From NCBI GenBank assembly GCA_963771075.1, contig CAVYSE010000007.1, positions 1 to 64,000 of the forward strand: a stretch of 64,000 bases of DNA. Reading direction: 5' to 3'. The position numbers and the translations under genes were made by a program. The notes under the pieces are model-generated. The model worked only from the letters and a program-made list of their open reading frames with translations, searched no databases and was not told the DNA's origin. Of this stretch, positions 6,247-54,038 are shown piece after piece (within the stretch, counting starts at the first letter, position 1; each line of letters starts with the position of its first letter). Origin of the DNA: a candidate division FCPU426 bacterium. GTDB taxonomy: Bacteria; Oederibacteriota; Muellerivitia; Muellerivitales; Muellerivitaceae.

Positions 6247-6534
6247 ATGATCCTTTCCATCCGTGAAATCGCCGCCAAACTTGGAGTTCACGAGCAAACC
6301 CTTCGGCATTGGGAGAAGTCGGGTTTGCTTAAGGTTTCACGTTTGGGAACGAATCGGACGAGGGTTTACAAAGAGGAAGACCTGGACTTGTGCCGCAAAA
6401 TAGCCAGTTTCTCCGGTCAAGGAATCAACTTAAGAGGGATTAAAGCTTTGTTGACCATCGAAAAAAACGGAGAAGGTGAACGGGATAAATTGCCGACAAC
6501 GAATAGACGAGCGAAGAAAAAAGTTTTAGGTTGA
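6247..6534 (+). CDS. MerR-family (HspR/BldC-like) transcriptional regulator
   Basis: SIREIAAKLGVHEQTLRHWEKSGLL..R...RVY..EDL..G.NL.GIK MerR HTH signature. Confidence 0.9.
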   Translation: MILSIREIAAKLGVHEQTLRHWEKSGLLKVSRLGTNRTRVYKEEDLDLCRKIASFSGQGINLRGIKALLTIEKNGEGERDKLPTTNRRAKKKVLG

Positions 6535-32547: not shown

Positions 32548-34105
32548 GTTTTGCGCATTATTCTTATTATTATTTTCAAGTTTTGTTCGAACGGCTCAAG
32601 CCGGAGCATTTGATAAGGGCGGTATTACAGGGGATGGGGCGAGAGCGGAAGGCATGGGAGGGGCGTTCGCTAGTGTGGCGGATTCCTCGGATGCCGTATA
32701 TTACAATCCTGCCGGTTTGGTTCAGGTTTTGCGCCCGGAAATTTCAGGTTTGGGTTCAGTTCTATTAAACGGGTTAGAAGATCTTTTCGTTTTTACTTAT
32801 GTTCAGCCTTTTGGCGATCAAATGGCCTGGGCCATTTCTACTCAACAGTTGCTTTTCTCCGATGGTAATGAGAACGATCGTATTTATATTGGGAGCTTTG
32901 CAGCGCCTTTGGCGATTGATAAATCCATTTCTTTTGGGATTAATGCTAAATATTATGGCGTAGATTCCCCTTCTCAACCCGATTTTCAGGCAAGCGGTTT
33001 TGGCTTGGATATGGGTTTTCTATACCACCTTCCCATTTATGACCCGCGCTATGGAAAAGAAATTAACATTGGTTTATGCGCGCAAGACTTGGACACGAGT
33101 ATTCAATGGCAAAAGGGTAATACTGACCCTATTGCCCTTTCAGTTAAGGGCGGGTTTAGTTATGAGTTTACGGATGATTTGGAAACTTCCTGGGAATTTG
33201 AAACAATCAACGATCCAACCGTAGGGCAACATACCTTGTTGCATGCAGGCATTGAGGGTTGGTTTTTCTCAGATCAATTGGGGCTTCGGACAGGCTATTC
33301 TGATTTTATGACCGAGTCAGGTCAATTCACCGCAGGTATAAGTTACCGTTCCCGTACCTGGGGGATTGATTACGCCTATATAGGTCATCCCGAGTATTTG
33401 GGGTCTTCTCATCGTATTGAAGCCAGCTGGAGATTTGGCGATTCGTTTTTGGGTAAAGTGAAGAGTTTTATACCCGAGGGTGTAACATCCTACGTGGATG
33501 GGGATATTATTACGCTTCGTTGGATTAATTCTCCTTCCATTTCATTAGCTGGTTACAACGTCTATTTTTCCAAAGTAACGGGGAGTGGTTACGTGAAAAT
33601 CAACCAGAACCCCATTAAGGCCAATTATTATTCCTTGCGGGGATTGGAGAAAAACACCCGATACTATTTCGTTGTAACTTCTTTGACAAATACCATTCCC
33701 CCGGTCGAAAGCCAATATTCCAGGGAGGTTGTTGCGGGGACCACTTCTGCTCCAGGAGCTCCTGTAGTGGTTCAAAGTGAGCTTCAAAACGAAGGAGTTA
33801 TTGACATTGCCCGACAAGCCGGAATGGGTGGGTTCCCTGATCCTAGTAAAAACGGTTTAAGGGGCTATAATATCTACGTTTCTGAGGTCTCGGGAGGTCG
33901 ATTCGATAAGGTGAATGCCCAACCCATTGCGAATGTTCCTACCTACTTGGTCCGGAAATTGAAGGTTGGTCAGCGTTATTTCTTCTCGTTTACCTCGGTT
34001 GGGTCGGATGGGACGGAAAGTGCTAAATCCCGTGAAGTTTCGGCTGTTGCCTTACCTTATACCAGTATTTCGCAACCACTCTCAACGACTTCCACTCCTC
34101 GTTGA
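32537..34105 (+). CDS. PorV/PorQ-like beta-barrel fused to two fibronectin type III domains
   Basis: Signal peptide, GARAEGMGGAFASVADS.DAVYYNPAGL, IDYAY..H..LG.SHRI; two FN3 repeats (GYNVY/GYNIY ... GL..NTRYYFVV, L..GQRYFF). Confidence 0.83.
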   Translation: MVIRFCALFLLLFSSFVRTAQAGAFDKGGITGDGARAEGMGGAFASVADSSDAVYYNPAGLVQVLRPEISGLGSVLLNGLEDLFVFTYVQPFGDQMAWAISTQQLLFSDGNENDRIYIGSFAAPLAIDKSISFGINAKYYGVDSPSQPDFQASGFGLDMGFLYHLPIYDPRYGKEINIGLCAQDLDTSIQWQKGNTDPIALSVKGGFSYEFTDDLETSWEFETINDPTVGQHTLLHAGIEGWFFSDQLGLRTGYSDFMTESGQFTAGISYRSRTWGIDYAYIGHPEYLGSSHRIEASWRFGDSFLGKVKSFIPEGVTSYVDGDIITLRWINSPSISLAGYNVYFSKVTGSGYVKINQNPIKANYYSLRGLEKNTRYYFVVTSLTNTIPPVESQYSREVVAGTTSAPGAPVVVQSELQNEGVIDIARQAGMGGFPDPSKNGLRGYNIYVSEVSGGRFDKVNAQPIANVPTYLVRKLKVGQRYFFSFTSVGSDGTESAKSREVSAVALPYTSISQPLSTTSTPR

Positions 34106-34125: not shown

Positions 34126-34911
34126 TTGCCTAGTGGCCTTTATATCGCTGCTTCTGGGATGAACTCGGATATTGTCCGTCAAGACGTTATAGCCAATAAT
34201 TTGGCGAACGTAAGCACGGTGGGTTTTAAGCAAAATCGCTCCGTGGATGTGGCTTTCCCTACATACCTAATCGCACGGCTTCATGATCAAAAGCTGAAGG
34301 TTATGGATGGCACTGCTGAACTTCGCCCCTCTATTGGTTTCATGGGTGGAGGTGTTATTCCCCAATCAAATGCAACGGACTACGCTCAAGGAGCACACCT
34401 GGAAACAAAAAGTCCGTTGGATTTCGCCTTGAATGGTCCTGGCTTTTTTGCTGTTCAGGGTGCCAATGGAAAAACTTATTTGACTCGGGATGGAAATTTT
34501 AATTTGGATGCCAATGGTAAAATTGTCACCAAAGAAGGTTTGACCGTCTTGGGGCATAACGGGGAAATTTTTGTAGATGGCAATCAATTGACCTCCGACC
34601 AGGAGGGAAACCTTACGGTGGATGGTAAGGCCTTGGACCAGCTTTTAACCGTGAAAGTCCAAGACGAAAACAACATGACCAAATTCGGCCATTCATTATT
34701 TCAAATCGGCCCTAAAAACAAAGTAGAACTCATGCCGAATGACGTTCAAGTGCAGCAGGGGTTTTTGGAGCAGTCCAACGTGAGTTCGGTCACGGAAATG
34801 GTAAATATGATCGATACCTATCGGTCTTATGAGCTGAATTCCAGGATCATCGCCTCCTATGATCATTTAATGGGCGAGGCTGCCTCGCAAATTGGTTCGC
34901 TTCACGTTTAA
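34126..34911 (+). CDS. flgF: Flagellar basal-body rod protein FlgF
   Basis: DVIANNLANVSTVGFK, LDFAL.GPGFF, TRDGNF, LEQSNV..V.EMV; precedes flgG. Confidence 0.88.
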   Translation: MPSGLYIAASGMNSDIVRQDVIANNLANVSTVGFKQNRSVDVAFPTYLIARLHDQKLKVMDGTAELRPSIGFMGGGVIPQSNATDYAQGAHLETKSPLDFALNGPGFFAVQGANGKTYLTRDGNFNLDANGKIVTKEGLTVLGHNGEIFVDGNQLTSDQEGNLTVDGKALDQLLTVKVQDENNMTKFGHSLFQIGPKNKVELMPNDVQVQQGFLEQSNVSSVTEMVNMIDTYRSYELNSRIIASYDHLMGEAASQIGSLHV

Positions 34912-34932: not shown

Positions 34933-34984
34933 ACGGCCGGACTGCTATTGCGGAGGCCGTTTTACCGCCGAACGACAGAGGCGG
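34933..34984 (+). promoter_or_regulatory. Putative structured RNA element in the flgG 5' leader (two hairpins)
   Basis: ACGGCC-GGA-CTGC-TATT-GCGG-A-GGCCGT followed by CCGCC-GAACGACAGA-GGCGG. Same first-hairpin architecture at 46983. Confidence 0.6.
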
Positions 34985-35027
34985 AGGTGTTCTGGCTTCG
35001 CATAGTTAGAAATTAAGGAGGGCTTCC

Positions 35028-35825
35028 ATGATGCAGTCACTTTACACGGCCGCGACAGGCATGGCCGCGCAGCAGCTGAATCTTGATACCATTTCGAACA
35101 ACTTGGCCAACGTCAGCACCACGGGGTTCAAGAAGCAAAGGGTTGATTTTCAGGATCTCCTTTATATCAACCTAAAAACTGCAGGCACTCCGACCTCGCC
35201 CGAGACGAATACCCCCGCTGGTTTGCAAGTCGGAGAGGGCGTACAACCCATCGCAACCCAACGTATCTTTACCGAGGGTTCGGTCCAAAACACCAACAAC
35301 CCCCTTGATATCCTGATTCAGGGAAATGAAAGTTTCTTCCAGGTCACATTGCCTAATGGGGAAACGGCCTATACCCGGGATGGTTCATTTACCCAGGATG
35401 GCAACGGTAATATCGTAACAGCCAATGGATATTTCCTCGATCCGCCCATTCAGCTTCCGGCGGATACGGCTTCAATTCAAATCACGGCCACGGGTCAAAT
35501 CATGGTCCAAACGGGTAATTCCACGACCGCAACTCAGATCGGTCAATTGGAATTAACCCGCTTCGTTAATCCCACGGGATTAACCGCGATTGGGAACAAT
35601 TTGTATTTGGCCACTCCCGCTTCTGGCGAACCTATCCAAGGAACCCCAGGCTCCACTGGTTTTTCCAATGTCCAGCAAGGCTCCCTGGAACAGTCCAACG
35701 TGGATGTTACCGAGGAAATGGTAAATATGATCGTGGCCCAGAGGGCTTACGAGTTAAATTCAAAGGCGGTTTCTACGTCCGATTCAATGCTTTATGATAT
35801 CTCCACCATGAAGCAATTCCCCTGA
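35028..35825 (+). CDS. flgG: Flagellar distal rod protein FlgG
   Basis: SLYTAATGMAAQQ, FQDLLY, GLQVGEG, EEMVNMIVAQRAYELNSK. Confidence 0.97.
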   Translation: MMQSLYTAATGMAAQQLNLDTISNNLANVSTTGFKKQRVDFQDLLYINLKTAGTPTSPETNTPAGLQVGEGVQPIATQRIFTEGSVQNTNNPLDILIQGNESFFQVTLPNGETAYTRDGSFTQDGNGNIVTANGYFLDPPIQLPADTASIQITATGQIMVQTGNSTTATQIGQLELTRFVNPTGLTAIGNNLYLATPASGEPIQGTPGSTGFSNVQQGSLEQSNVDVTEEMVNMIVAQRAYELNSKAVSTSDSMLYDISTMKQFP

Positions 35826-35840
35826 TGACGAATTAGCGGA

Positions 35841-36818
35841 ATGCGAGGAACTACTTTATCGCTTTTCTTCGTTTTGGGGTTTTACGTCCAAACGCTGTGG
35901 GCTTTGGAAAAACCTTTTACCGTGCGGTTGTTGGATCAGGCGACGGTTGCGGGACCTGATATCACCTTGGGGGATGTGGCCCAACTGGCAGGAGATGAGA
36001 AACCTTTTTTGGATCGCTTGGGCCACATGGTTTTGGAGCAAGCGGCTCCGGTGGGGAGTTCGGTGGTTTTGAATCGTTCTGCGGTCAATTCGGCATTAAG
36101 CCGGGAAGGTTATTCGACGGGTGCTGTGGTTTGGGAGGGAAGTGATGCCTGTCGGGTTTTAACCCAAGTCCAGGATGTATCACCAGACCAGTTATTGGAA
36201 TCGGCAAAATTATTTATCCGGGTCCAAACTGGGGAAGATGCGAAAAATCTGGACATCAAGCTCTTGAGTCCGACCAAAAACATCAAGATGCCCGCGGGAA
36301 AACTGGAAATCCATTTTCGCCCCTCCCTTATCGGCCAATATGAGGGGGTGCAGATATTGACGGCTGAATGTTCGACGGATGGCCATGCCGGCCGGGTTAT
36401 TCCGGTAAGGTTGAACACACAGATCTTTCGGTTGGTGGTGGTGACGAAAAAAGAGGTTCGAAAAGGGGAAAAATTTACTAATGCTAATATTGGGTTTGAT
36501 CGACTACCCAGCGATAAGGTTTCCAAGGGAACGTTACAAAAGCTGGAGGATGTCTTGGGCCGGTCGGCCGGTATGGATCTCAAGGCTGGAACACCGGTCC
36601 GGTTTAGTGAAATCAACGATCCACCGATGATCCATCGGGGTGAAGTGGTTCAAGGGCTGGTGATAACGGGGAACGTCGAGATTTCGGTTTCCGTGAGGGC
36701 CCAAACGGATGGTAGGGCTGGGGAAGAAATTGTGGTTGAGAATACGGACACTCACAAGGTTTTGAGGGCGAAGGTTCTGGATGAAAATAAGGTTCAGATC
36801 GATCAAAAGAAACCTTAG
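35841..36818 (+). CDS. flgA: Flagellar P-ring formation chaperone FlgA
   Basis: ITLGDVA N-domain, SAF domain, DG..GE.I.VEN..THKVL.A.V. Confidence 0.92.
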   Translation: MRGTTLSLFFVLGFYVQTLWALEKPFTVRLLDQATVAGPDITLGDVAQLAGDEKPFLDRLGHMVLEQAAPVGSSVVLNRSAVNSALSREGYSTGAVVWEGSDACRVLTQVQDVSPDQLLESAKLFIRVQTGEDAKNLDIKLLSPTKNIKMPAGKLEIHFRPSLIGQYEGVQILTAECSTDGHAGRVIPVRLNTQIFRLVVVTKKEVRKGEKFTNANIGFDRLPSDKVSKGTLQKLEDVLGRSAGMDLKAGTPVRFSEINDPPMIHRGEVVQGLVITGNVEISVSVRAQTDGRAGEEIVVENTDTHKVLRAKVLDENKVQIDQKKP

Positions 36819-36821
36819 CCG

Positions 36822-37457
36822 ATGGGGGTTGGCATGACAAAAAAAATATTTTTCCTAATCGCCCTTTGGGCAACCGGATGGGGTTTCTGGCCTCACGGTG
36901 CCTATGGGGATTCCATTTATCCGTTGGAAGGGGCCGGCTCCATTTATACCGAAAAAAGAGCTCACCGGGTGGGCGATGTCATTACGGTACTCATCCAGGA
37001 AGACACCCAGGCCAGCCAGGGTGCCAGCAGCCAGAATCAAAAAACAGCAAGTATTGCCTTGGGCGCTGGCACGGGCAATTTGGGCGCCGGTGGATATGGC
37101 TCCAGCCTCTTGAATACCAATAACCAAATTGGCGTGGGTGCCAGTTCCAACCATCAAGGCCAGGGCTCCACCAGCCGGGGGACGACCATTACGGGCCAGA
37201 TGACTGCCAAGATCATGTCCGTTCTTCCTAATGGAAATTTCCAAATCGAGGGAACCCGCTATGTCGAGGTGAATGAGGAAAAACAAACTGTTGAGGTGGT
37301 GGGCGAGATCCGGCCTGACGACATTTCCCGGGATAATACCGTTCCCTCCTCGCGGGTGGCTGACGCCAAGATCAAAATTACGGGGACGGGACCGGCTTCT
37401 GAAACGGCCAAACCCGGTATACTCACACGCGTTTTTAGCTGGCTGGGGCTTTTCTGA
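36822..37457 (+). CDS. flgH: Flagellar L-ring protein FlgH (no lipobox Cys)
   Basis: RA..VGDVITVLI.E, VLPNGN..IEG, GEIRPDDI..DNTV.SSRVADA.I. Confidence 0.95.
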   Translation: MGVGMTKKIFFLIALWATGWGFWPHGAYGDSIYPLEGAGSIYTEKRAHRVGDVITVLIQEDTQASQGASSQNQKTASIALGAGTGNLGAGGYGSSLLNTNNQIGVGASSNHQGQGSTSRGTTITGQMTAKIMSVLPNGNFQIEGTRYVEVNEEKQTVEVVGEIRPDDISRDNTVPSSRVADAKIKITGTGPASETAKPGILTRVFSWLGLF

Positions 37458-37471
37458 GGGGAAGGGAAAAA

Positions 37472-38593
37472 ATGAAAAATAGCGAATCTCCTTTTTTAAA
37501 ATGGGTCATTCTTTCTATGGTTTTCCTGGCCGTTTGGCCGGCTTGGGGTGCCCAGGTGCGCTTAAAGACAATCGCCCAAATCAAGGGGGTGAGAGAAAAC
37601 CAGCTGATCGGATACGGTCTGGTGGTCGGTCTCCAACGCTCGGGTGACACCCAAAGGGTTGTCTCCACCCTTCAAAGTATTACCAATATGCTTTTGCAGT
37701 TCGGGATCAAAATTAATTCGGACCAGATCCGTACACAAAACGTGGCAGCGGTCATGGTAACCGCCCAGTTGCCCGCCCTAGTCAAATCGGGAGATAAGAT
37801 CGACGTGGTTGTTTCCTCGGTTGGCGACGCGCGTAGCCTTCAAGGCGGCAATCTTTTGATGACTCCCCTCCAAGGGCCGGATGGACAGGTTTATGCGGTA
37901 GCCCAGGGTCCTCTTGCGGTCGGCGGGTATTCGGACAATACAGGTGAGTTTCCTCTCATCCAGGTGGATGCTACGACGACCGGGCGTGTACCCAACGGGG
38001 CCATGGTCGAGCGGGAAGTGCCTTCCTCCTTCATCGACAACAACACGGTTTCCATTTTATTGAATAGCCCGGATTTCAGCCAAGCTTCCCTTGTGGCCCA
38101 GGCACTGAACCAGCAATTCGGCGAACCGGTTGCCCGGGCCGTTGACGGCGCCCAGGTGGACGTGAAATTGCCTCCCAATTACCAGGACAACGTGGTGGAT
38201 TTCGTCGCGGCGGTAGAAGAAACACAGGTACAGACCGATTCCGCGGCCAGCCGGGTCGTCGTGAACGAGCGGACCGGAACGGTGGTCTTGGGCCAGGATG
38301 TTCGCATTGACGCGGTGGCCATTGCCCACGGCAATTTGCGGTTGGTGGTCAAAAAGACGACCGAAATTTCCCATGACGCCGTTTTTGGGCATGATGAGCT
38401 GACTCACACCACGACCGTTTCGGCCGAGGACACCGGCAAACAGGGGAACCTGGTGGTGGTGCCCGAGGGCGCCACCTTGTTGGACATCGTCACCGCGGTC
38501 AACGCAGTGGGCGCAACCCCGAGGGATCTCATCTCGATTCTTCAAGCCATCAAAGAATCCGGCGCGCTTCACGCCGACCTGACGATCCTCTAG
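37472..38593 (+). CDS. flgI: Flagellar P-ring protein FlgI
   Basis: GVRENQLIGYGLVVGL, NVAAVMVTA, SLQGG.LLMTPL, LISILQAIK.SGAL.A. Confidence 0.97.
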   Translation: MKNSESPFLKWVILSMVFLAVWPAWGAQVRLKTIAQIKGVRENQLIGYGLVVGLQRSGDTQRVVSTLQSITNMLLQFGIKINSDQIRTQNVAAVMVTAQLPALVKSGDKIDVVVSSVGDARSLQGGNLLMTPLQGPDGQVYAVAQGPLAVGGYSDNTGEFPLIQVDATTTGRVPNGAMVEREVPSSFIDNNTVSILLNSPDFSQASLVAQALNQQFGEPVARAVDGAQVDVKLPPNYQDNVVDFVAAVEETQVQTDSAASRVVVNERTGTVVLGQDVRIDAVAIAHGNLRLVVKKTTEISHDAVFGHDELTHTTTVSAEDTGKQGNLVVVPEGATLLDIVTAVNAVGATPRDLISILQAIKESGALHADLTIL

Positions 38594-38607
38594 GTCCGGA
38601 GGTTCCT

Positions 38608-39069
38608 TTGACCCCTTATGTGACGGCAGTCACCAATTTTCTTCCCTCCCCCCAATCCATTATGGGAACGGGCAGCGAGCCACTATCCACCAGCTCCCAA
38701 TTGGCGGCCCAGACCCTCTTGTCCAATTCCTATTTGTCCCACGCACCCGCCTTTTCAAAACAGGGACAGTTAGATCCATTACGCCCGGTATTCGACTTGA
38801 ATTCCGCCCATGTCCACACGGACGCTCAAATGAAGAAAGTCGCTCAGGATTTCGAGGCGATATTTCTGCGAATGATGCTAAAGGAAATGCGTGATTCCGT
38901 CGAGAAATCGGGACTCATGGGAAACTCCCAGGCCACCGACTTGTTTCAATCGATGCAGGACGAACAAATGGCCAACAAGCTGGCTGGCGCCGGCGGTATC
39001 GGCCTCGGGTCCATGGTTTATCAGCAACTTCAGAAAGATTATTCCGCCCAGCAAAAAACCACCAAGTAA
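38608..39069 (+). CDS. flgJ: FlgJ-like rod-binding protein (no muramidase domain)
   Basis: VAQDFEAIFL.MMLKEMR and GGIGL..MVY.QL. Confidence 0.9.
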   Translation: MTPYVTAVTNFLPSPQSIMGTGSEPLSTSSQLAAQTLLSNSYLSHAPAFSKQGQLDPLRPVFDLNSAHVHTDAQMKKVAQDFEAIFLRMMLKEMRDSVEKSGLMGNSQATDLFQSMQDEQMANKLAGAGGIGLGSMVYQQLQKDYSAQQKTTK

Positions 39070-39498
39070 ATGAATTGGGCCAACTGCTCCCGTTGCGGCC
39101 AGGCCTACACCCATGTCGAGGGAGGAAGGGATATTTGTCCCGCCTGCGTCCGGGTCGAAGATGACCATTACGGCCTTGTTTTTAGGTACCTATCCACCCG
39201 TCCTTCCGCCACCGCCCAGGAAATAGCCCAGGAAACCGGGGTGGATATCAAGGAAATCTACCGTTACGTCCGCGAAAACCGCCTTCAACTGATCAAGAAC
39301 GATACGGGCTTATTTTGCGAATCATGTGGTATCCCCATTTCCCAAGGAAAAATGTGCGAAAAATGCTTTCAAAAGCTTTCCGCCGATATTCAAAATGACC
39401 TATTGAAAACCAGGGAAAACCTAAAAAAATACCATAAAACCGACGTAGGAAAATTCGTCAAAGACCCTAAATATCTTAAAAAATATAGGGGCGAATAA
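39070..39498 (+). CDS. Flagellar operon protein of TIGR03826/YvyF type (Zn-finger)
   Basis: NCSRCG..., ICPAC, I..YVRENRL, CESCG.PI..G.MCEKC; upstream of flgM. Confidence 0.85.
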   Translation: MNWANCSRCGQAYTHVEGGRDICPACVRVEDDHYGLVFRYLSTRPSATAQEIAQETGVDIKEIYRYVRENRLQLIKNDTGLFCESCGIPISQGKMCEKCFQKLSADIQNDLLKTRENLKKYHKTDVGKFVKDPKYLKKYRGE

Positions 39499-39557
39499 AA
39501 GTTGCTCTTTTAAAGGCTTTTGCCCGCCAAAGATTCCCTCGAAAACCCACTTTTTAC

Positions 39558-39584
39558 TCAAGTTTTTCCTTTGGGACCCGTTAG
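39558..39584 (+). promoter_or_regulatory. Putative sigma28 promoter of flgM-flgN-flgK-fliK
   Basis: TCAAG-N14-CCCGTTAG; same pattern and spacing at 46006 and 49615. Confidence 0.7.
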
Positions 39585-39612
39585 GTTCTCTAGAAAACCG
39601 AAGGAGTTTCTC

Positions 39613-39900
39613 ATGAAAATCGAAGGATTTCAAAATATCCCGGCCATTCTTCAGTCGTTCCAGAAGTCGGCCCAGCCCGCGCCCAAATCCGAAACGGAAG
39701 CGGGGTCAAGTTCGGTATCGCTCAGTTCTTTCGGAGAGGTACTCCAATCCTTACAGCGTCAGTCGGCGCAAATCGCGCAAGGCCGCGCGGGGAAAGTGGA
39801 TCAGCTGGCTCAACAGGTCCAGTCCGGTCAATACCAGGTTGATCTCAACAAGCTCGCCTCCAAGATCGTCGAAGCCAACATCATCGATTTCAAGGGATAA
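39613..39900 (+). CDS. flgM: Anti-sigma28 factor FlgM
   Basis: AAGGAG RBS, MKI start, SVSLSS, R..KV..L...V.SG.YQVD..KLA.KI. Confidence 0.9.
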   Translation: MKIEGFQNIPAILQSFQKSAQPAPKSETEAGSSSVSLSSFGEVLQSLQRQSAQIAQGRAGKVDQLAQQVQSGQYQVDLNKLASKIVEANIIDFKG

Positions 39901-39902
39901 CC

Positions 39903-40388
39903 GTGAACGATCTGGTTCTAAAACTGGTGGATGAATTGAAAAGGGAAAGGGGCTGTTACCAGCGCCTGGCATCCCTGGCGGCGGAGCAAAAACAATTCTT
40001 GATCGCGGGGGACCTGCAAAAGCTGGGTGTCAATTTGAAAAAGCAGGAAAAAGAAGTGTTCGCCCTTTCCCCCTTGCTGGGTGAGCGCAATGACCTGATC
40101 GCGGCGCTGGGTAAGGAACTTCGACTTTCCAACCCGACCCTGGAGCAAATCGTGAAGAAGGCACCCATCGAGGTCGTGGAAGAACTGAAGAAGGCAGTGA
40201 TCGAGTTGGTGCAATCGGCGAGGGAACTGGAAAGCATCAATAAAGGCAACGAGAAGCTGGCCCATAACGCGCTGTCCCTGGCGGACGTGACGCTCAAGGC
40301 GTTGGTGGGAAAAGGCCGTACCCAGGCAACCGCCCCTTCCGCCAAACCGGCGGGGCAGGGCTCGTCGTTCGTCAACCGCGTCGTTTAG
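39903..40388 (+). CDS. flgN: Flagellar export chaperone FlgN
   Basis: Helical protein with N..N.KL...AL; lies between flgM and flgK. Confidence 0.85.
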   Translation: MNDLVLKLVDELKRERGCYQRLASLAAEQKQFLIAGDLQKLGVNLKKQEKEVFALSPLLGERNDLIAALGKELRLSNPTLEQIVKKAPIEVVEELKKAVIELVQSARELESINKGNEKLAHNALSLADVTLKALVGKGRTQATAPSAKPAGQGSSFVNRVV

Positions 40389-40397
40389 GAGGCTTAC

Positions 40398-42812
40398 ATG
40401 ATCAGTGGGTTTCAAAGCATCAGCACCATCAACAGCGGATTAATCCTCGCTGAGTTGGAACAAGATGTCACCGCCTCCAACCTTGCCCAACCCTCCTTGG
40501 ATTCCCAGGGCTATCTGATGAACAGCCTGGAATCCGTGAACGCGGGGACAGGCCCCTCCCTTTCCTTCGATGGGCTCACCGGTGTGGTTTCCGTCGGCGC
40601 GGGCGTCTCAATCGATTCCATCACCCGCTTGCGAAGCTCTTTTCTCGACAGCCAAATCCGCCAACAAAGCATGCTGGTCGGATATAACGAGATCCTGGCC
40701 AACACTTCGGGGGGCGGGGTCCTCAACCAGGTCAACAGCATCATCAACGCCACGGCCTCCGACACGCTTAATTCGGCGCTAACCCAATTCCAGAACGCCT
40801 GGCTGAACCTTGGGAATGGAACGGGTTCCGCCTCCCAGGTTCTTTCCGCGGGCACCGCTTTCGCCCAGATGGCCAACAGCCAGTACAACGCCCTGCAGAA
40901 TTTACAGCTCACCTATAACGATAATATCCAGGGGACGGTCGGCCAGATCAACCAGTTGCTGCAGCAGCTCAGTTCCATCAATTCCCAGCTCAATGCCACC
41001 CAGGGCTCCAACCAGAATTCCTTGCTGGACGCCAGGGACTACGCGTTGGACCGCCTTTCCCGCCTGGTGAATTTCCAGGTCACTTTCGGCAGCAACGGAA
41101 CCTCCAGTGTGTTCCTCAACGGCGTTTCGCTTTTGAGTTCGGCTGGAGCCGGACAGCTCCAGGCCTTCCTGCCCGACCCAACCAACCCCGCCCTGGCGGA
41201 TATCTCGGTCTCGGCTCCGACCTATGGAAACCCCATGCAAACCGGCGGCAATCCCGCGGTGGCGAACCTCTCCCCAACCACGGTCGATATCACCTCCATG
41301 ATTACGGGCGGCAATTTGGGCGGGGAACTGCAGGCCCGCAACGTGGTGCTACAAAGCTACAAGCAGGAGATCAACCAAATCGCGACCGGGGTCATGAACG
41401 TGACCAACAGCATTTACGCCACCGGGTATAACGGGGCGGCGACCGGCCAGCTGTTTTTCGAGGGGACGGGGGCGTCCAATATCATTATCAACGGGGCCTT
41501 GACCCCCTCCGGAAACCTGGCCATTTCCAGTGTTTCCTCCAACCCGGCGCTATATGTTCCCCCGGTCGCGCCCCCCCCAGACACCGAGATCGCCCAATTA
41601 CTGGGCGGCGCCGGTAATTCCCCCGGATTGATGAACCTCTTGTCCCAAAATTACGCGGTCAGTTTGAAACCCATTAATCAAGCCGGCGCCGTGATCAATC
41701 CCTTTATCCCCATGGCAGGCCAACTTTTTCAAACCAACCCGGTGGGTGGGGGGGCGGGTTGGGGCACCATCCAAATCAACGGCGTGACGATTCAAAGCCA
41801 AACGGACCCAATCGCGGGGCACAGCTATAACGCGGCCACCGACAGCATCGCGGACCTGGTTCAGGACATTAACTCCCAGGTCTCGGGCGTCACGGCCGTT
41901 TATGACTCCACCAACCAGCGGTTCTATATTTTCTCCTCAAGCCCGGTCAAGATCATCGCGTCTGCCTCGGCCGGTTCTCCCACCTTTTTCCAATGGGCGA
42001 ACGTCACCGACGTGATGGTGGGCCTTTCCACCTTGAACAATAGCTTCGATCCCAACATGCCCAAGGTCTATACGACCGCCGGTTCACCCTTGCCGACCAC
42101 CCCCTCCCCCATGGATTCCCTGGTACCGAGTCCCGTGGCGCTCTTGAACCAACCCACCTTTGGGCCCAATATTTCCGCCTTGGCGGTCACGGCGGGGGCG
42201 AACGGTACTTTTTCCATCAACGGCATGGCGCCCTTGGCCTGGAACAATACCCAAAGCGTCAATACGGTTTTAACGGCCATCAACACCTCGGGCGCGGGCG
42301 TGGCGGGCCAAGCTTCGGTCAACACTCAAACGGTGCTTCCGACTTTTTTTGGCGGAAACAACACTCAAGCGGTGATCTTGTCTTCCTTGAGCCCGATTTC
42401 CATCGCCGATGTGACTGGAAATTTCACCTCCGTGATCGGGGTCAATACCAGCCTGTCCCTGGGAAACATGTCCTCCTCGGTTCTTGGGCAGGTTCAAAAC
42501 GACTTGACGGGCCAAACCGCCTTGTCCCAAGAGGACCAGGACGCCTTGAACCAGCTAAACACCGCCCAGGCCAACTTGGCCGGCATTAACACGGGGGGGG
42601 CCTCCTCGTCTTCCTCCGCCTCGGGCATACCCAACAGCTCCAATTCGGGGGTTCCCATCGCCTCGATCCAACAACAAGCCACCTCGGCCGCCACGGCCTA
42701 CAACGCCTTGTTAGAAATCATGCAGGTCATCGACAACATGTATCAGAACCTGATCAACGTCGTGGGCGGGGGCACCGCGACGAGCAACAGCAACAACAGC
42801 TTTCAAGGTTAA
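40398..42812 (+). CDS. flgK: Hook-associated protein FlgK-like (804 aa, divergent termini, two flagellin-hook IN-like inserts)
   Basis: GV.IDSITRLRSSFLDSQIR, LLDARD..LD.LS.LV, GG.LGG.L.AR, AYNA....QVID.MY..LIN; follows flgMN. Confidence 0.85.
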   Translation: MISGFQSISTINSGLILAELEQDVTASNLAQPSLDSQGYLMNSLESVNAGTGPSLSFDGLTGVVSVGAGVSIDSITRLRSSFLDSQIRQQSMLVGYNEILANTSGGGVLNQVNSIINATASDTLNSALTQFQNAWLNLGNGTGSASQVLSAGTAFAQMANSQYNALQNLQLTYNDNIQGTVGQINQLLQQLSSINSQLNATQGSNQNSLLDARDYALDRLSRLVNFQVTFGSNGTSSVFLNGVSLLSSAGAGQLQAFLPDPTNPALADISVSAPTYGNPMQTGGNPAVANLSPTTVDITSMITGGNLGGELQARNVVLQSYKQEINQIATGVMNVTNSIYATGYNGAATGQLFFEGTGASNIIINGALTPSGNLAISSVSSNPALYVPPVAPPPDTEIAQLLGGAGNSPGLMNLLSQNYAVSLKPINQAGAVINPFIPMAGQLFQTNPVGGGAGWGTIQINGVTIQSQTDPIAGHSYNAATDSIADLVQDINSQVSGVTAVYDSTNQRFYIFSSSPVKIIASASAGSPTFFQWANVTDVMVGLSTLNNSFDPNMPKVYTTAGSPLPTTPSPMDSLVPSPVALLNQPTFGPNISALAVTAGANGTFSINGMAPLAWNNTQSVNTVLTAINTSGAGVAGQASVNTQTVLPTFFGGNNTQAVILSSLSPISIADVTGNFTSVIGVNTSLSLGNMSSSVLGQVQNDLTGQTALSQEDQDALNQLNTAQANLAGINTGGASSSSSASGIPNSSNSGVPIASIQQQATSAATAYNALLEIMQVIDNMYQNLINVVGGGTATSNSNNSFQG

Positions 42813-42822
42813 GGGGTAAAAC

Positions 42823-45800
42823 ATGAGCGTGAAAAATATAAGTGACCTTCTGGACAGCCTATCCTCCAAGACCGCGAAATCGGCGGACGGCCTTTTAAAC
42901 CCGGCCAATCCCTCGACGGTCCCGGGCGGCGGTTCGGGCTCGGGGAATAATTCTTTCGGACAGGTGATCGCCAAGGTCGCCGACCAGCAGCAAACCGCAA
43001 ATAACAATCCTGCTCCCGCCGCTCAAGACAATCCGGCGCCGGTTCCGGTGGTGACTCCTACGGCAGTGACGGCCCCCGGAACCCAGAACCAGGCGCCCGC
43101 TCTTAATTCCAGTTCATCGGGTACGACCCAAACCACCCAGGACACGCTCCTGGTTTCAGAAAGGCTCCAGGGGGTCAAGCCCCAGGATATCGCCACCATT
43201 GAGAAATCCTTTTTTGCCATGGCCTCGGGGTTGGCCAGCCTTCTTTCCCAGGCCCAACAGCTCGCCGGGGAAAATTCGGATCAACTACAGGCCCAGTTGG
43301 TCGCTAATTCGGGTGGAAAGATCACTCCCGCCGAGGCGTCCCAACTGGTTTCCGCCGTTCTCAGTTTTATCAATAACCTGCCTCCGGGCCAAAATCCGCT
43401 CGACCTGAACAAACAAGACCAGAACAACCTGGTCGGCCAGATGCTTCAACAGATGCTTCAAAACCAACAGGTGGCTTTTGCCTTGACCCCAACGGCCATC
43501 CAGGGCGATCAAAATGGATCCAACAACGGTCAAGGTATTGCCGGGGTTTCCGGGGCGGCCGGACTCTCCAATGTCACCCTGCAATTCTTATTCACGGAAG
43601 GCCAGATCAACCAAACCAAAACCACCGGGAACCAGGGCTCAGGACTGCAGGTAAACTACCAGGCTGCCCAGGTGAGCGTAACCACCCAAACCTTTGAAAC
43701 CCAGAATGCGCAGGGCTTGAGGGGTACCGGGGCCGGGGCGGCAAACTTTGCCCTTCCCGCCGAGCCGTCCCTGAATACCGCGTTTAATTTCCAGCCCATT
43801 CCGCAGGATAAGGTCCAAGCCATCCTGAACGCCCTGAGCCAATTGGGCGCCCAGCCTGCTTCCGACCTGAATGTAACCGTGGTTAACCCCACCTTGACGG
43901 CCCAGGGGGAACAAGCCTCAGCCAATAGCAAAAACTTACAGTCACTCTTCAAGGTTTTGTTGCAAGCCGGGGCAGGGCCCGTGATGTTGCAGTCATCCCT
44001 CGCCCAACAGGCGGCCCTCACCAACAATTCCAACGTCCAAAATACAAACGTCACCGCGAATGCGGTCGCCCAATTGACTCAAGGTTTGACAGGCACTCTC
44101 CAGGCAGGCGCGGTCCAAGCCGCCGCGGGCACCCAAAACACGGCCAACCCCAATGTGAATCAAAACCCATTGCCGGTTCAAACGGGTGTCCCAGCCCCGG
44201 TTCAGCCGGTGATCAACCCCGTGCCGGCTCCGGTCGTCAACCAACCTCAAACCGGTCAAAAGCAACAGGTTGCTCAAGCCCCCTTGGCCACGGCCCCAAA
44301 TCCCGATGCGATTCAAGCTCCCCAGACCCAAGCCCCATCCACGGTGAATATCGCGCCCAAGACAACGGGCCAATCCTTCTGGTCTTCGGTGAATTTCAAG
44401 CGGATCAACGAGTTGGTGCTTCGCTTTACGAATTTCATTGGTAACTCCAACACCACCGTCGCGGTCCAAACCCCGGGCAACCAAGGCCCAGCCCAGATCG
44501 CCGTAGCCAGCTCTCCCAGCGCAATCACGGCCCAGGTGGGTACCTCCATCGGTCCCAACGCCCAGCCCATCAGTATTTCGCAACTTCCCGATGGCAGCGA
44601 AAAGGAAACCGTCAACAACAACGTGGTTCCCAATACGGTCCAAATCCAACCGGATCCCATCCCAACCTCGGTCGCTACCACGACCGTCCGGGTTGAAACC
44701 CAAAACCAGACCCGTTTAGCCCAAGACCTGCTGGATAACCAGGCGGCGACAGCCCAGGTGGCCGTTCAAACCCCGGTGGCCAGTCCGGTTACGACAGTCC
44801 AGGCCCAACCGGTGAGCAATTCCCAATCCTCATCGCCTGCCCAAAGCTCGGTTGCCCTTACCCCGCCCGCCCCCGGCACGAACGCGCAGGGCTTAGCGGC
44901 GGCATTGACAGCAAATACCAATCCCTTACCCATCGTACCCGCGGGTACGCCCAATATCGTGACCCCCACGGCGTCCATAAACCCGGCGCCACCGGCTACG
45001 ACCCCGGGCGCTCCAGTTCCACCTCAACCCCAGGTTTCCCTGAACCAGCCGGTTAATCCGGTGAATGTGGTTCAACCTGCGCAGTCCAACGGCACGAACC
45101 AGGGCTTGAATCCATTGAATCAAGCGGCAAACCCTGGTTTGTCCGCAACTCCCATTTCCCCGGCGCAAAATCTTTCCGGTTCGGTGGCGGCGGTGGATGT
45201 GTTCAAACAGGGAACGACCCAAGTCCAGCCCAACAATAACCAGGCTCCCCTCAATTCGGCCAATCCGGTACAGCCGACCGGCACCGTTTCCACCGCAACG
45301 GCACAAGCGGTCACGACCCCGACCAACCTGGGCGCCTACGATAATTCCAAGCCTATCGGGGTCCAAGAAAAGAACCCCTTGAACGATCTTATGAATTCCC
45401 AGAACCAAAATATCCCCAACTCGACCGGGTTGGTCTATACCCTTGGAAAGGGCGGGGAAGTCCAAGCGGTTAATGCCGCGGGTAACACCATTCCCATTAA
45501 CGCTACGGACCTGATCGGCCAGATTTCAGGGCAGGTTACCGCCAGGGGGGCCGAGTTAAGGGCCGTCACTTCCATCAGCTTCCAGCTTCAACCCGAGAAC
45601 TTGGGAAGGTTGAACATCCAGGTTTCCTTGGTGGACCAGTCGGTTTCAGCCCGAATTCTCGTGACAAACCCGGAGGTTAAGGAAGCCCTCCAGCAGCACA
45701 TGGTCGACCTTCAAACAGCCTTAAATCAGGCCGGGCTTGCAGATTGACCAGCTCCAGGTTCAGGTTCAGGGTGGAGGGGCCAGCCTTTTGGCCCAGTATT

Positions 45801-45934
45801 ATCAGTTTCAGCAGGAAGGTTATGGTTCCAGCCTGCCCCTCGGGGTCGGCGGTTATCCCGGTGGTTTGACTGAAAACGAGGCCTTAATAGCCCCTCTTTC
45901 GGATCGGAAATCGCTGGTCAACCTGCTGGCTTAA
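42823..45934 (+). CDS. fliK: Very long hook-length control protein FliK (~1036 aa; apparent +1 frameshift at ~45734)
   Basis: Low-complexity Q/N/P/T/A region, then LQPENLGRLNIQV...VKEALQQHM.DL..AL..AG (Flg_hook domain). Continues as LQIDQLQV in ORF 45737-45934; precedes flgD. Confidence 0.88.
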
Positions 45935-46005
45935 ATAAGGCTTTTGAGTGTCTTACCAGTTTTTGGTTTAGATGTTCCCTTGATACGTTTTTAGCGGGAA
46001 AAGGC

Positions 46006-46032
46006 TTAAGTTTTTCGGCATAATGCCGTTAG
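46006..46032 (+). promoter_or_regulatory. Putative sigma28 promoter of flgD-flgE
   Basis: TTAAG-N14-GCCGTTAG. Confidence 0.7.
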
Positions 46033-46060
46033 AATTAATCAAGAAAGAGGGGTGATTTTC

Positions 46061-46478
46061 ATGGTTTCAGGCGTGGAAAACAACAATTCTTTGTCGAACG
46101 CCTTGGGGAGTGTTGCGGGAAGCAGCAGCCAATTCGTGTCCGAGAACACGTTTTTAACTCTTCTGATTACTCAGTTGGAGAATCAAGACCCGATGAATCC
46201 CCAGGACAGCAGTCAGTTCGTGTCCCAGTTGGCTTCCTTTTCATCGTTGGAGCAAATGACGGCGATGAACACGAACATGCAGAACGTCCTGGATAACTCG
46301 GCGACCAGTTTGATCAACCAGCAACGTGACGCTGTTGGATCAAAACGGAAACATGGTTCAGGGAACGGTTACCGGTATTGTTTATTATTCGAACACTCCG
46401 GCAGTCCAGGTCAACGGCCAAAATTATCCTTTATCGGATATTCAAAACGTTGGCAATGTGGCAGCGACAGGACAGTAG
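46061..46478 (+). CDS. flgD: Flagellar hook capping protein FlgD (apparent +1 frameshift at ~46322)
   Basis: FLTLLITQLENQDPMNP...FVSQLASFSSLEQM; the shifted frame gives NVTLLDQNGNMVQGTVTGI...VNGQNYPLSDI, stop at 46478. Confidence 0.9.
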
Positions 46479-46537
46479 CAGCGGGGTTTGTATCTTGGCC
46501 CGGAAGTTTCGGGTCCTTGAAAGGCAGGTGAGGACCA

Positions 46538-46948
46538 GTGGTTCAGCAAGTGAACTTTAATGATTTGACTTTCAAGCCGGTGGATGACGTCCAAAGCAAG
46601 GGCCAGTTGCAGCAGATCCAGCAGCAGGCTAGTAAGGCCGCGGCGGCCGTCCAGCCCTTCGACGCGGTTTTCCAGACGGCGGTCGATAAAACCCAATCGT
46701 TGAAGTTTTCGGCCCACGCCAAGGAAAGATTGGCAATGCGCAATATCAACCTTTCCGGGGACGACATGGCCCGCATGAACGCCGCGGTCGATAAGGCGGC
46801 TTCCAAGGGGGCGCGTCAATCCTTGTTGGTGATGGACCAGCAGGCTTTTATCGTCAGCGTGCCGAACCGCACCGTGATTACCGCGATGGATGGCGGAAGC
46901 ATGAAAGAGAATGTCTTCACCAACATCGATAGTGCGGTGATCGTTTAG
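46538..46948 (+). CDS. Flagellar operon protein, TIGR02530 family
   Basis: LKFSAHAKERL..RNI, A..KGAR.SL, VSV.NRTVITAMD...ENVFTNIDSAVI. Confidence 0.93.
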   Translation: MVQQVNFNDLTFKPVDDVQSKGQLQQIQQQASKAAAAVQPFDAVFQTAVDKTQSLKFSAHAKERLAMRNINLSGDDMARMNAAVDKAASKGARQSLLVMDQQAFIVSVPNRTVITAMDGGSMKENVFTNIDSAVIV

Positions 46949-46982
46949 CCGTTAGTTGTTTATCGTTTTTGCAGGGTAGTGA

Positions 46983-47034
46983 CGGGCTGGACCTCCTAGA
47001 GGAAGCCCGAAATCAAGCGGGTTGAATACCCGCT
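46983..47034 (+). promoter_or_regulatory. Putative structured RNA element in the flgE 5' leader
   Basis: CGGGCT-GGA-CCTC-CTA-GAGG-A-AGCCCG followed by a second hairpin AGCGGGT..ACCCGCT before the RBS. Confidence 0.6.
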
Positions 47035-47054: not shown

Positions 47055-49179
47055 ATGGGTATGCGTGATATGTACAGTGCCATTTCCGGTCTCGAAGCCA
47101 ATAGCACGTGGCTCGACGTCATCGGAAATAACATCTCGAACGTCAACACGATCGCTTATAAGGCGAGCCGGTTGGAGTTCGCGTCAACTTTCAGCCAGAC
47201 TCTCAATCCGGGCCAGGGAGACAATACGGGAAGCGACATGGGCGGCATCAACCCCCTCCAGGTCGGCTTGGGTACCCGCGTGGCTTCCATCCAGACCCTT
47301 TGGGCGGAAGGCTCGCTCCAGCAAACGGGCGTTTCCACCGACGTCGCCATCCAGGGTAACGGCTTTTTGGTGACCAAGAACAACGGAAACCAATACTTGA
47401 CCCGAGCCGGCAACCTGACCTTCGACAGTGCCGGTAACTTGACGGACCAGAACGGCGGATTGATCCAGGGGTTTGGGCCACGGTCCAATATAACCAAACC
47501 GAGATCAACTCCCAGAATGGCGCGGCGGGCAAATTGGCGGACGATGTTACTCCTTTGTACATCACCAACGCGCAACTGACCGTCAACAACACCAACTTGT
47601 CGGCGGCCACCAATATCCAGATCAACCCCAATTTCGTGGAGCCGGCCAGCGCCACCAACCAATTGAATTTCATTGGCAACCTGGATTCCTTCCAGCAGGT
47701 ACAAGTTTTGAATCTCGGTCAAGGGATTGACGCAGTCGGCGGGGGCGGCCGCTGATCCGGCTGCATTGCCGCTTGGCGCGGTTGACTATTGGGCTGGATA
47801 AGGTGGGTGTCTTCGCCGATGTTTTTAACGCCAATAAAATAGTTCCTGTGGCTATTGGACTGAATGGGCAATCGGCGGGCGCGGCTGTTACGGGGGGCAC
47901 ACGATCCCTTCAAATCGAAAACGACCTGGCTACCGGTGAGGATCCCGATGATCCGAGGCATACGACGCCTGTGATTGTCGAGGCTTGTTCCTTGGACGTG
48001 ATCCAGAATCGCTGCAAACGCGACGGGTGAGGATTTCGCGTGGAACCAGGAACCGCCGGTGACCCCGGCCCTGACTTCGGCCCAGACGGTCTATGACTCG
48101 ACCGGCACGGCCCACACCATCACCACCTGTTTTTATCAGGTGACGGATATCAGCACTAATGGCATCAACCCCACGCCTCAAAACCAAGTAGCCTATGCCT
48201 GGTATTCCTTCGACACGACAGGTGGCGCCGCAATCAGCACGCAAAACCTCCTGGGCGGGACTGGAATCTACGAGGGTTCTGGACACTTGTTGGGCCCAGG
48301 AAAAGGGTACGACCGTGGCACTGTGGGCAACGAATATTGGGGTGACCTGATCTATTTCAACTCCGATGGCTCATTGGCTTCCACTGGTGGGGCGGGAATT
48401 GTCAACGGCAATATCATCCAGACTCAGCCGGATATTTATTTGCCGCTCAGCCCAGCCATCTGGTGCTGATATCGTGGGACCTGGGACCGCCGCTCCAGAC
48501 GCTGGTGACCGCCACCATGAGTCCGGTTTCACCCATACCTACCTTAGGCGCTGAAATCATGCAAATGAAAATGAATTTCGGTACTGCCGGTTTTACCCAA
48601 GGACCTGGGGTCGATCACATGGAGTTAATTAAATACTGGCGTACCCGATGGAGATACACCACTTCCTGATTGGGGCCAAGACGTCCGGGAACTATCATCG
48701 GGGCAGGCCGCGACGGCTTATTCAGCGACGCGGAAGGCACCTACCAGGTGATCAATGGGGTCAACACCTACGTGGCCAACAGCTACGCCACGACCACCCA
48801 AAATGGTTACGCGGATGGAACTTTGCAAAGCCTTTCCTTCAACGCGGTCGGCACCATCGAGGGCCAGTTCAGCAACGGGCAGACCACGGCCCTGGGCCAG
48901 CTTTTGATGGCCAGTGTCGAGAACGTGAATGGTCTGGACTCCGTGGGTAACAACTACTACACCGAGGGGCCGAACGCAGGGGCGCAGATTTTGGGCACGG
49001 CCGGCACGAACGGGATGGGCACCATTGAGGGAGGTTATTTGGAAGGGTCCAACGTCGACTTGACGACGGAACTTTCCAACATGATCATCGCCCAAAGGGG
49101 CTTTGACGTGAACTCCCGGGTGATCTCGGTGGAAAACGCCAACCTGCAGGTTCTGACCCAATTGGGCCAGGGCGGCTGA
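47055..49179 (+). CDS. flgE: Flagellar hook protein FlgE (~700 aa) with multiple apparent frameshifts in the central region
   Basis: N-terminal AISGL...LDVIGNNISNVNT.AYK, TRAGNL.FD; central VYDSTG.AH; C-terminal LEGSNVDLTTEL..MIIAQRGF..NSRVI. Split over several ORFs. Confidence 0.88.
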
Positions 49180-53069: not shown

Positions 53070-54038
53070 ATGAACTTTTTCGTGAAAAATATTTTGTTGG
53101 GTATGGCTACTTTTGCCTTACTGACGGGCTACTCCGCAAGCGCCCAAACCGCGAACGGAGGGACCAACTCCTTTGATTTCCTCAATATTTCCCCCATTTC
53201 ACGCGCGGTCGGTGTAGGGGAAGCCTATTCAGCGGTGGGGGACGACGTCGGTTCGGTCTATTACAACCCCGCGGGGCTCGCCAGCATCCTGACCAATGAA
53301 ATGAACATTACTTATCTTTCGCTCTATCAACAGATGAGTTACGAGTTCATCGCTTTCGCCACCCCCCTTCAACCCTCTTTCCCTTCGCTCGGGGGGGTTG
53401 TCGCGCTGAGCGCGGGGTTATTACAGCCGGGAAGCATGACCCGCACCAATGATTCCGGACAATCCACGGGTTCTTTTTCAAGCGGGGATGAGGTATTCAC
53501 CTTGGCCTACGCCAAGGACATCAGCCCTACCCTCCACTTCGGAACTTCCATCAAACTCATCACCCAGCAAATCGACACCGTTCAAACCTCGCTTTTCGCG
53601 GTGGACGCGGGTGTGGTCGTTATTCCTTCTTTCCAAGGCATGCGATTCGGGTTAGTGGTCAAGAATATTGGCGCGCAAGATTCCGGATTTAACCTTCCAT
53701 TTAATCTTTTGGGGGGCATTTCCTACCGCCAATACGAGCTTTTCTCGGACCAGGATGACGGCGCGGTCATGGGGGAAGTGACTTTACCCATTCAACCTGT
53801 TGAGGATCCGGTCATGGCTTCTTTTGGTTTGGAGTATAATTATAAATGGATTGGAAACAGGGCAACGCTCCGCGCCGGTTACAAGTTCGTGAACAACGGT
53901 TTGGGCGGTGAGGGGTTGACCTTGGGAGCTGGCTACGGGTTGGATTTCGCGGGGGCGGTCGTATTCCTGGATTACGCCTACGCGCCCGCCGATGTTTTCG
54001 GGGATACGAACCGCGTCACTCTAACGACTAAATTTTGA
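53070..54038 (+). CDS. PorV/PorQ-family outer-membrane beta-barrel
   Basis: Signal peptide, FLNI.P.SRAVGVGEAYSAV.DD..SVYYNPAGLA, LRAGY, LDYAY.P...G.T.RV.L..KF. Confidence 0.87.
   Translation: MNFFVKNILLGMATFALLTGYSASAQTANGGTNSFDFLNISPISRAVGVGEAYSAVGDDVGSVYYNPAGLASILTNEMNITYLSLYQQMSYEFIAFATPLQPSFPSLGGVVALSAGLLQPGSMTRTNDSGQSTGSFSSGDEVFTLAYAKDISPTLHFGTSIKLITQQIDTVQTSLFAVDAGVVVIPSFQGMRFGLVVKNIGAQDSGFNLPFNLLGGISYRQYELFSDQDDGAVMGEVTLPIQPVEDPVMASFGLEYNYKWIGNRATLRAGYKFVNNGLGGEGLTLGAGYGLDFAGAVVFLDYAYAPADVFGDTNRVTLTTKF

Follow-up and report, generated by a model that had tools for sequence, protein, structure and literature searches.

The window analysed here is a 64,000-nucleotide stretch of DNA from a candidate division FCPU426 bacterium (GCA_963771075.1, contig CAVYSE010000007.1, positions 1 to 64,000 of the forward strand) that carries a flagellar gene cluster. 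The distal rod gene flgG and the hook gene flgE are each preceded in it by a leader with two successive RNA hairpins, referred to below as P1 and P2. Both hairpin pairs represent the same conserved leader RNA element. This element is a real and widespread cis-acting RNA, and in the genomes sampled it co-occurs with TIGR02530, a protein whose gene lies just upstream of the flgE copy. The features of the two loci are as follows.

34126..34911, + strand: flgF-like proximal rod gene, directly upstream of the first copy; best named families FlgEFG/FlgF, with FlgF below its cut-off
34933..34960, + strand: P1 of the flgG leader; 6-bp stem, internal loop of GGA (34939-41) facing A (34954), inner stem CUGC/GCGG, which is the flgG type
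34965..34984, + strand: P2 of the flgG leader; loop of the canonical GA-NN-GA-NN-GA form
34990..35011, + strand: third hairpin of the flgG leader, a family-level feature before the Shine-Dalgarno (SD) sequence, without a U tract
35015..35038, + strand: SD and initial codons of flgG, which can form a competing fold through complementarity to the two P1 strands
35028..35825, + strand: flgG, distal rod gene; TIGR02488 at 359 bits, above cut-off
46538..46948, + strand: gene for the TIGR02530/PF12611 protein of 136 amino acids (aa); TIGR02530 at 113.9 bits against a cut-off of 83.2, PF12611 at 55.8 against 21.1
46983..47009, + strand: P1 of the flgE leader; loop of GGA (46989-91) facing A (47003), inner stem CCUC/GAGG of the flgE type, with an anti-SD sequence as its 5' strand
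47016..47034, + strand: P2 of the flgE leader, with the stem retained and the loop reduced
47055..49179, + strand: flgE, hook gene, in three reading frames in this assembly

A first-pass annotation of the window had drawn both P1 hairpins (flgG, ACGGCC-GGA-CTGC-tatt-GCGG-A-GGCCGT; flgE, CGGGCT-GGA-CCTC-cta-GAGG-A-AGCCCG), and both lie where it placed them. Each folded alone gives the drawn structure (z -3.2 for flgG and z -2.4 for flgE). The second hairpin that it reported is present in both leaders and belongs to the motif, and its identification of flgG, flgE and TIGR02530 is upheld by family profiles. A simple descriptor of P1 (6-bp stem, GGA, 4-bp stem, A) has 6 sites in the 4.39-Mb genome and 1-3 in each of five local shuffles, so the descriptor by itself is just mildly enriched and is weak evidence. 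Searching the whole genome with a covariance model gave exactly two sites, namely the flgG and flgE leader copies. No internal promoters or terminators exceeding those in shuffles were found at these two copies.

The window also shows frame changes in fliK, flgD and flgE, at 45739, 46322, 47475 and about 48420-48460, relative to its close relative L001. FlgE is intact in L001 (656 aa), and the window's TIGR02530 gene and both elements are intact. The frame changes are likely to be assembly errors; they may instead reflect gene decay.

To describe the element we used the best 80 of 233 confirmed TIGR02530-relative loci, drawn from many phyla, together with 30 loci from the window's phylum and 30 flgG loci. 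P1 is a stem of 5-7 bp followed by GG(A/U/C) facing one purine, then by a C-G pair that never varies and by a short inner stem, and there is a P1 in almost every TIGR02530-flgE gap examined. The GGA/A internal loop of the first-pass annotation holds for both window copies but not throughout the relatives, in which GG alone is invariant, the third base can also be U or C and the bulge is A or G. P2 lies within about 20 nt downstream of P1 and its usual loop is N-GA-NN-GA-NN-GA-N. This triple-GA loop is present in 48 of 66 flgE leaders outside the window's family and in all 19 family flgG leaders, but in none of the 15 family flgE leaders. The element is positioned 65-136 nt ahead of the start codon. 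In the window's phylum and in Bacillota alike, most flgG copies have CYGC/GCRG as inner stem and most flgE copies CCUC/GAGG.

Applied to 100 sources, a covariance model built from 18 leaders (R1) returned 96 matches at E<=1, of which a few were marginal. In the R1 alignment 97.5% of 1296 cells are paired, compared with 35-51% in slid controls; there are two-sided changes at 14 of 15 pairs, and all three helices covary. These figures lean favourable because the alignment was fitted to the model. RNAalifold, applied to a structure-blind alignment of 40 leaders, recovered the P2 helix de novo (covariation term -2.2). P1 was not recovered from this alignment because its variable loop lengths misaligned it. 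The proposal that compensatory changes point to selection on RNA structure is supported by the covariation of all three helices.

The element is found ahead of both flgE and flgG in the window's phylum and in Bacillota, and ahead of flgE in several further phyla. It is present in 26 of the 29 usable flgG leaders of relatives, and relatives without an flgG match gave no element match. Among the second copies in Bacillota, 23 of the 28 fetched, a high-scoring subset, precede flgG. Rarer copies lie ahead of flgF, flgD, a fliK-like gene, extra flgE paralogues, the start of a merR-flgB operon and one flagellin-like open reading frame (ORF). These locus surveys in relatives and Bacillota support the view that the element is confined mainly to rod and hook leaders.

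Some of the less usual arrangements can be given individually. In G035 (L154) an element copy lies ahead of a MerR-family gene preceding flgB, and at G136:C6:7350-7406 (L216) a copy lies ahead of the flagellin-like ORF. Contig G024:C20 (L219, L305) holds a rearranged remnant in which flgE comes before TIGR02530, flgD is inverted nearby and there is no strong flgG match; a degenerate P1 alone follows TIGR02530. In G029 the copies at L151:545-700 and L153:451-590 are each followed by a nearly identical strong terminator-like hairpin, one directly ahead of the flgF SD and the other ahead of a low-complexity ORF of 161 aa. Two stand-alone FlgE-like genes, G000:C8:91645-93495 (- strand) and G000:C7:251483-253333 (+ strand), have the same match to FlgE (46% over 642 aa) and no element. 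Orphan FlgE-like genes of a similar kind occur in G013, G023 and G024.

The first-pass annotation had suggested checking whether the motif and TIGR02530 occur together. In a sample of 151 Bacillota genomes, 121 encode FlgD, 103 of these with TIGR02530 and 18 without it; the genome-wide model search covered 150 genomes. The model found the element in 102 of the 103 TIGR02530-positive flagellated genomes (91 genome-wide and 11 more with filters off, at E<=0.05), and in the remaining one P1 was recognised by eye. None of the 18 genomes without TIGR02530 yielded the element, either in the genome-wide search or in searches of flgD-flgE and of the fetched flgF/flgG/flgE loci. Two or more copies are present in 43 of the 91 genomes matched genome-wide. 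In the window's phylum, genome G036 is flagellated and has neither TIGR02530 nor the element. Deletion of adjacent sequence could explain the loss of the flgE copy, yet the unlinked flgG copy is also missing, which counts against mere adjacency. In Bdellovibrionota all 28 flagellated genomes among the 40 sampled match TIGR02530, so this phylum is uninformative as a test of co-absence. The model matched 8 of these 28; a diverged P1 was recognised in 18 of the other 20 (13 by a finder score that 1.75% of shuffles reach, and 5 by eye) and one was ambiguous. One Bdellovibrionota genome has a strongly diverged, full-length, decayed TIGR02530 (41 bits), and the motif was not seen in its leader. Taken together, the motif and TIGR02530 co-occur as proposed.

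TIGR02530 has a low-complexity N-terminus, its first 30-50 residues being P/Q/A-rich, and eight invariant positions: H60, R64, K90, T115, F127, N129, I130 and D131. H60 and R64 are in the helix that opens the predicted domain. DUF4258 is matched weakly by 37 of 55 members (best E 0.0023). In a structure comparison of the AlphaFold model (predicted local distance difference test, pLDDT, 82), RelE/ParE-type chains took 17 of the top 18 ranks and Cami1 the other; the RelE/ParE-type alignments have Z 4.4-5.7 and a root mean square deviation of about 3 A over about 70 residues. A PDB sequence search and an ESM Atlas feature search for TIGR02530 gave nothing clear. The model suggests that the C-terminal domain is RelE/ParE-like. 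The naming of TIGR02530 as candidate ligand is thus supported by co-presence, by co-absence and by a predicted RNA-acting fold, and TIGR02530 is likely to be the dedicated protein of the element.

The N-terminus closes with F-x-x-x-hydrophobic, which we take to be the export gate-recognition pattern, in 53 of 54 TIGR02530 proteins, with F at residues 30-52 (median 36). The background for this pattern is 21% of the 2217 long ORFs of this genome, and because the homologues share it by descent it is one conserved feature and not 53 trials. In the window TIGR02530 has FDAVF at residues 41-45, and the pattern recurs within residues 31-42 of FlgD, FliE, FlgM, FlgG and FlgE. The gate recognition motif of Salmonella FlgD is given as residues 36-40 in the part of PMC8983047 consulted. 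TIGR02530 may therefore be exported through the flagellar gate, a lead that comes from the likeness of its N-terminus to those of flagellar export substrates.

The sequence of P1 also bears on the start of the next gene. Leader counts use 88 of 91 leaders; those dropped had a wrong start, a frameshifted duplicate or the window's own frameshifted flgE. The reverse complement of P1 GAC-N is in the ribosome-binding site (RBS) or start region of 40 of the 88, against 6 expected (17 of 43 against 3 when thinned), a count that none of 500 swaps reached. In flgE-type leaders the SD has GAGGUC and not GAGGUG (10:0, against 12:74 in 241 other genes). For the full flgG leader of the window the computed minimum-energy fold is the competing fold and not P1: the P1 strands pair with the SD and first codons, and in silico this is 6.5 kcal/mol more stable than the P1 fold. 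The 5' strand of P1 can pair with the RBS or start region in a subset of leaders. Terminator-like sequence between element and start codon is present in just 2 of 107 flgE/flgG copies, both weak, which suggests that attenuation is not the general mode; there are 3 clear terminators among 13 atypical copies.

We consider that the element is most likely a protein-controlled translation switch. The reading that we favour, at a probability of roughly 0.55, is that TIGR02530 binds the element and thereby raises translation of the hook and distal rod genes. The features recognised by TIGR02530 would be the GG/R loop together with its invariant C-G pair; the triple-GA loop would probably be recognised as well. 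Once bound it would hold P1 shut, and the shut P1 would keep its 5' strand (GACCUC in flgE, GACUGC in family flgG) from pairing with the ribosome-binding and start region. Output of FlgE and FlgG could then exceed that of their neighbours on the same long mRNA. In Salmonella each flagellum has about 120 FlgE and about 25 FlgG, but 5-6 FlgD and FlgF. We prefer a protein-stabilised P1 that frees the RBS, since it is apparently the intact loop that the ligand reads and since the targets are abundant subunits. As for the parts of this reading, we regard TIGR02530 as the probable ligand; an effect on translation or stability of the next gene is somewhat better than even, and activation as the direction of the effect falls slightly short of even.

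Several observations weigh against this reading. The GAC-N swap signal is mostly a difference between paralogue classes: there is no within-class covariation of P1 and RBS in flgE leaders (17 against 16.6 in swaps, p 0.5), and a general covarying P1-RBS switch is unsupported there. Pairing of 5 bp or more in flgG leaders is seen in 18 of 19 members of the window's family but in 0 of 19 elsewhere. In 68 of 88 leaders P1 is the favoured fold unaided, to within 1 kcal/mol, and RBS accessibility rises by >0.15 in just 8 of 88 when P1 is forced. Three of 29 flgG leaders in TIGR02530-positive relatives lack the element, as do orphan flgE paralogues. G013, G023 and G070 hold the flgG copy with no TIGR02530 detected. 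G023 and G070 are also without flgD, so their hook locus may be unassembled, but in G013 (93% complete, 270 contigs) flgD is followed by an unrelated gene, an unexplained exception. The 18 negative Bacillota genomes are not independent; they represent 10 changes on a quick, weakly resolved FlgE tree, 2 of them forced by well-supported branches. Finally, Foldseek gave no match for the TIGR02530 model at E<=0.001, and Z values below 8 may reflect a common arrangement.

A broader form of the favoured reading is that the system is an old and widespread assembly checkpoint on mRNA, in which the toxin-fold TIGR02530, turned RNA regulator, gates translation of FlgG and FlgE by way of the leader switch and is itself exported through the flagellar gate like FlgM, so that assembly state sets rod and hook synthesis. 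We put this forward tentatively, as a rather speculative extension.

The main rival is cleavage. TIGR02530 would here be a site-specific ribonuclease cutting at or beside the element, either to free the flgE and flgG messages from the long operon transcript and stabilise them, or to silence them after rod and hook completion. The RelE/ParE-like model and the DUF4258 similarity are compatible with this, as is the position of the invariant H60 and R64 in the domain-opening helix, where they could serve a putative RNase activity but could also serve binding only. Processed mRNAs are commonly protected by 5' hairpins, which also suits cleavage. DUF4258 is placed among the colicin-like BECR RNases, with a conserved His on a pre-alpha helix, in the part consulted of a 2026 preprint (10.64898/2026.08.28.747851). 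However, an antitoxin-like neighbour was not seen, and the fliK-like and flgF copies of G029 lie, by eye, near apparent transcript starts after sigma-70-like hexamers, so that release from an upstream cistron is unnecessary there. On balance we think cleavage unlikely.

It is improbable that the element is independent of TIGR02530, that is, a stand-alone stabiliser or a site for a housekeeping factor that is lost when the adjacent gene and the element are deleted together. The flgE copy often begins at the TIGR02530 stop codon, and the three genomes that retain an flgG copy with no protein detected would fit. Against it, all 18 flagellated Bacillota without TIGR02530, and G036, also lack the unlinked flgG copy, and there are invariant unpaired bases in both loops, which point to a specific ligand.

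A little less probable still is that the element is a loading site for antitermination, helping RNA polymerase through long flagellar operons in the manner of the two-hairpin ANTAR or put elements. There are strong U-tract hairpins after two G029 copies, one of them directly before the flgF SD, and one case in G076, and copies also lie before a fliK-like gene, flgD and the merR-flgB operon start. However, terminator-like sequence before the start is rare in flgE/flgG copies, as given above, and the element tracks individual genes and not operon starts; for example, G041 has it before two extra flgE paralogues far from TIGR02530.

The least probable proposal, which we reject because presence pattern and sequence context are both against it, is that GGA is a CsrA site under FliW control. 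CsrA binds GGA-rich motifs, in flagellar mRNAs included, with the consensus ANGGA (PMC4894983, in the part consulted), and it is present in most motif-bearing Bacillota; it is also present in 9 of 18 motif-less flagellated Bacillota. Searches for CsrA and FliW in this genome, which is 96.7% complete, found neither, and a CsrA search that matched in three known genomes as a positive control found CsrA in 0 of 25 genomes of the window's family and 2 of 41 of the phylum sample. Two positions ahead of GG, all 89 leaders have C, G or U and none has A, so the ANGGA context does not occur, and GG occupies an internal loop, not the hairpin loop or SD expected of a CsrA site. In Bdellovibrionota, 13 of 18 leaders have U or C as the third base. 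CsrA is thus an unlikely ligand: searches of this genome and 24 family members did not find it, and the third loop base varies. Of the first-pass interpretation, selection on RNA structure, the rod and hook leaders and TIGR02530 as candidate stand, and the CsrA alternative falls.

Elsewhere in the window a small MerR-family helix-turn-helix gene (6247-6534) lies ahead of flgB, where the flagellar cluster starts. Between fapA and flgF (30325-34105) there are two large genes of non-flagellar appearance (740 and 522 aa) with, by eye, PorV-like N-terminal wording, and a PorV-family gene lies at 54035-55048. FlgK (40398-42812) is unusually long at 804 aa, and no flgL or flagellin follows it within the window.

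Post-transcriptional control of flagella is known mainly for flagellin, and the favoured reading, if true, would add a control step for rod and hook. Its reach would extend to most sampled flagellated Bacillota (103 of 121), Bdellovibrionota and several uncultured phyla. Flagellar_put, given as 'function unknown' in the part consulted of a June 2026 survey (PMC13277936), would gain a testable function, and a toxin-like fold would have been reused as a housekeeping RNA regulator. TIGR02530 was not found in four flagellated control genomes (E. coli, B. subtilis, Caulobacter and Thermotoga), which may explain why the system was overlooked. The protein and RNA make a compact pair that could be tested in a host without either part.

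The element is apparently undescribed. A cmscan of the window with Rfam 15 placed no family over it; a tRNA alone reached gathering level, and a single wcaG match (E 3.4) on the opposite strand is put down to chance. The literature search found no description of the element or of TIGR02530 function, although the supplements of PMC11109978 and PMC5737381 lay outside it and may bear on novelty. Flagellar terms are absent from the main texts of PMC11109978 and PMC8632094 and from the readable supplements of PMC8632094 and PMC6429828. Among the closest candidates are HMP2_4503, HMP2_12528 and HMP2_11826 (Fremin & Bhatt 2021, PMC8040213), which are automated, unnamed predictions of 77, 38 and 52 nt near flgE (Roseburia) or flgG/flgF (Selenomonas, Oribacterium). 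Each is given for a single family or genus, and nothing in their table rows connects flgE copies with flgG copies or either with TIGR02530. Compared by these table rows and not by alignments, they may be fragments of the element (PMC8040213).

Termite-flg (RF01729) and flg-Rhizobiales (RF01736) are likewise candidate cis-regulatory RNAs ahead of flagellar genes, but their published rows have sequences and structures unlike the element (Weinberg 2010, PMC2864571, in the part consulted). Searches of the window and of 16 related loci matched neither, not even at E up to 5-10, and RF01729 matched none of 41 related genomes in a search run without a positive control. With RelE/ParE, the colicin-like BECR proteins and DUF4258, TIGR02530 is predicted to share a small alpha/beta fold whose domain opens with a helix bearing conserved His/Arg. 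It differs from them in being encoded in a hook operon, in its long low-complexity N-terminus, in having no antitoxin neighbour that we could see and in its pairing with a cis RNA. TIGR02530 resembles FlgM and early export substrates in having a low-complexity N-terminus and then, near residue 36, F-x-x-x-hydrophobic; the gate recognition motif of such substrates is treated in the part of PMC8983047 consulted. The effect of FlgM is on sigma-28 and transcription, whereas TIGR02530 would act on RNA. The CsrA-FliW system on C. jejuni flaA has in common with the element two leader stem-loops, an exposed GGA and post-transcriptional control of an abundant axial subunit (PMC4894983, in the part consulted). 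In flaA, however, ANGGA is in apical loops and over the SD, whereas the element has GG(A/U/C) in a 3x1 internal loop with no upstream A. Its targets are rod and hook genes, in a family in which CsrA was not found, unlike the flagellin leaders of CsrA-FliW. The element belongs to none of the systems tested, and in its working it appears to resemble the known protein-bound flagellar leaders.

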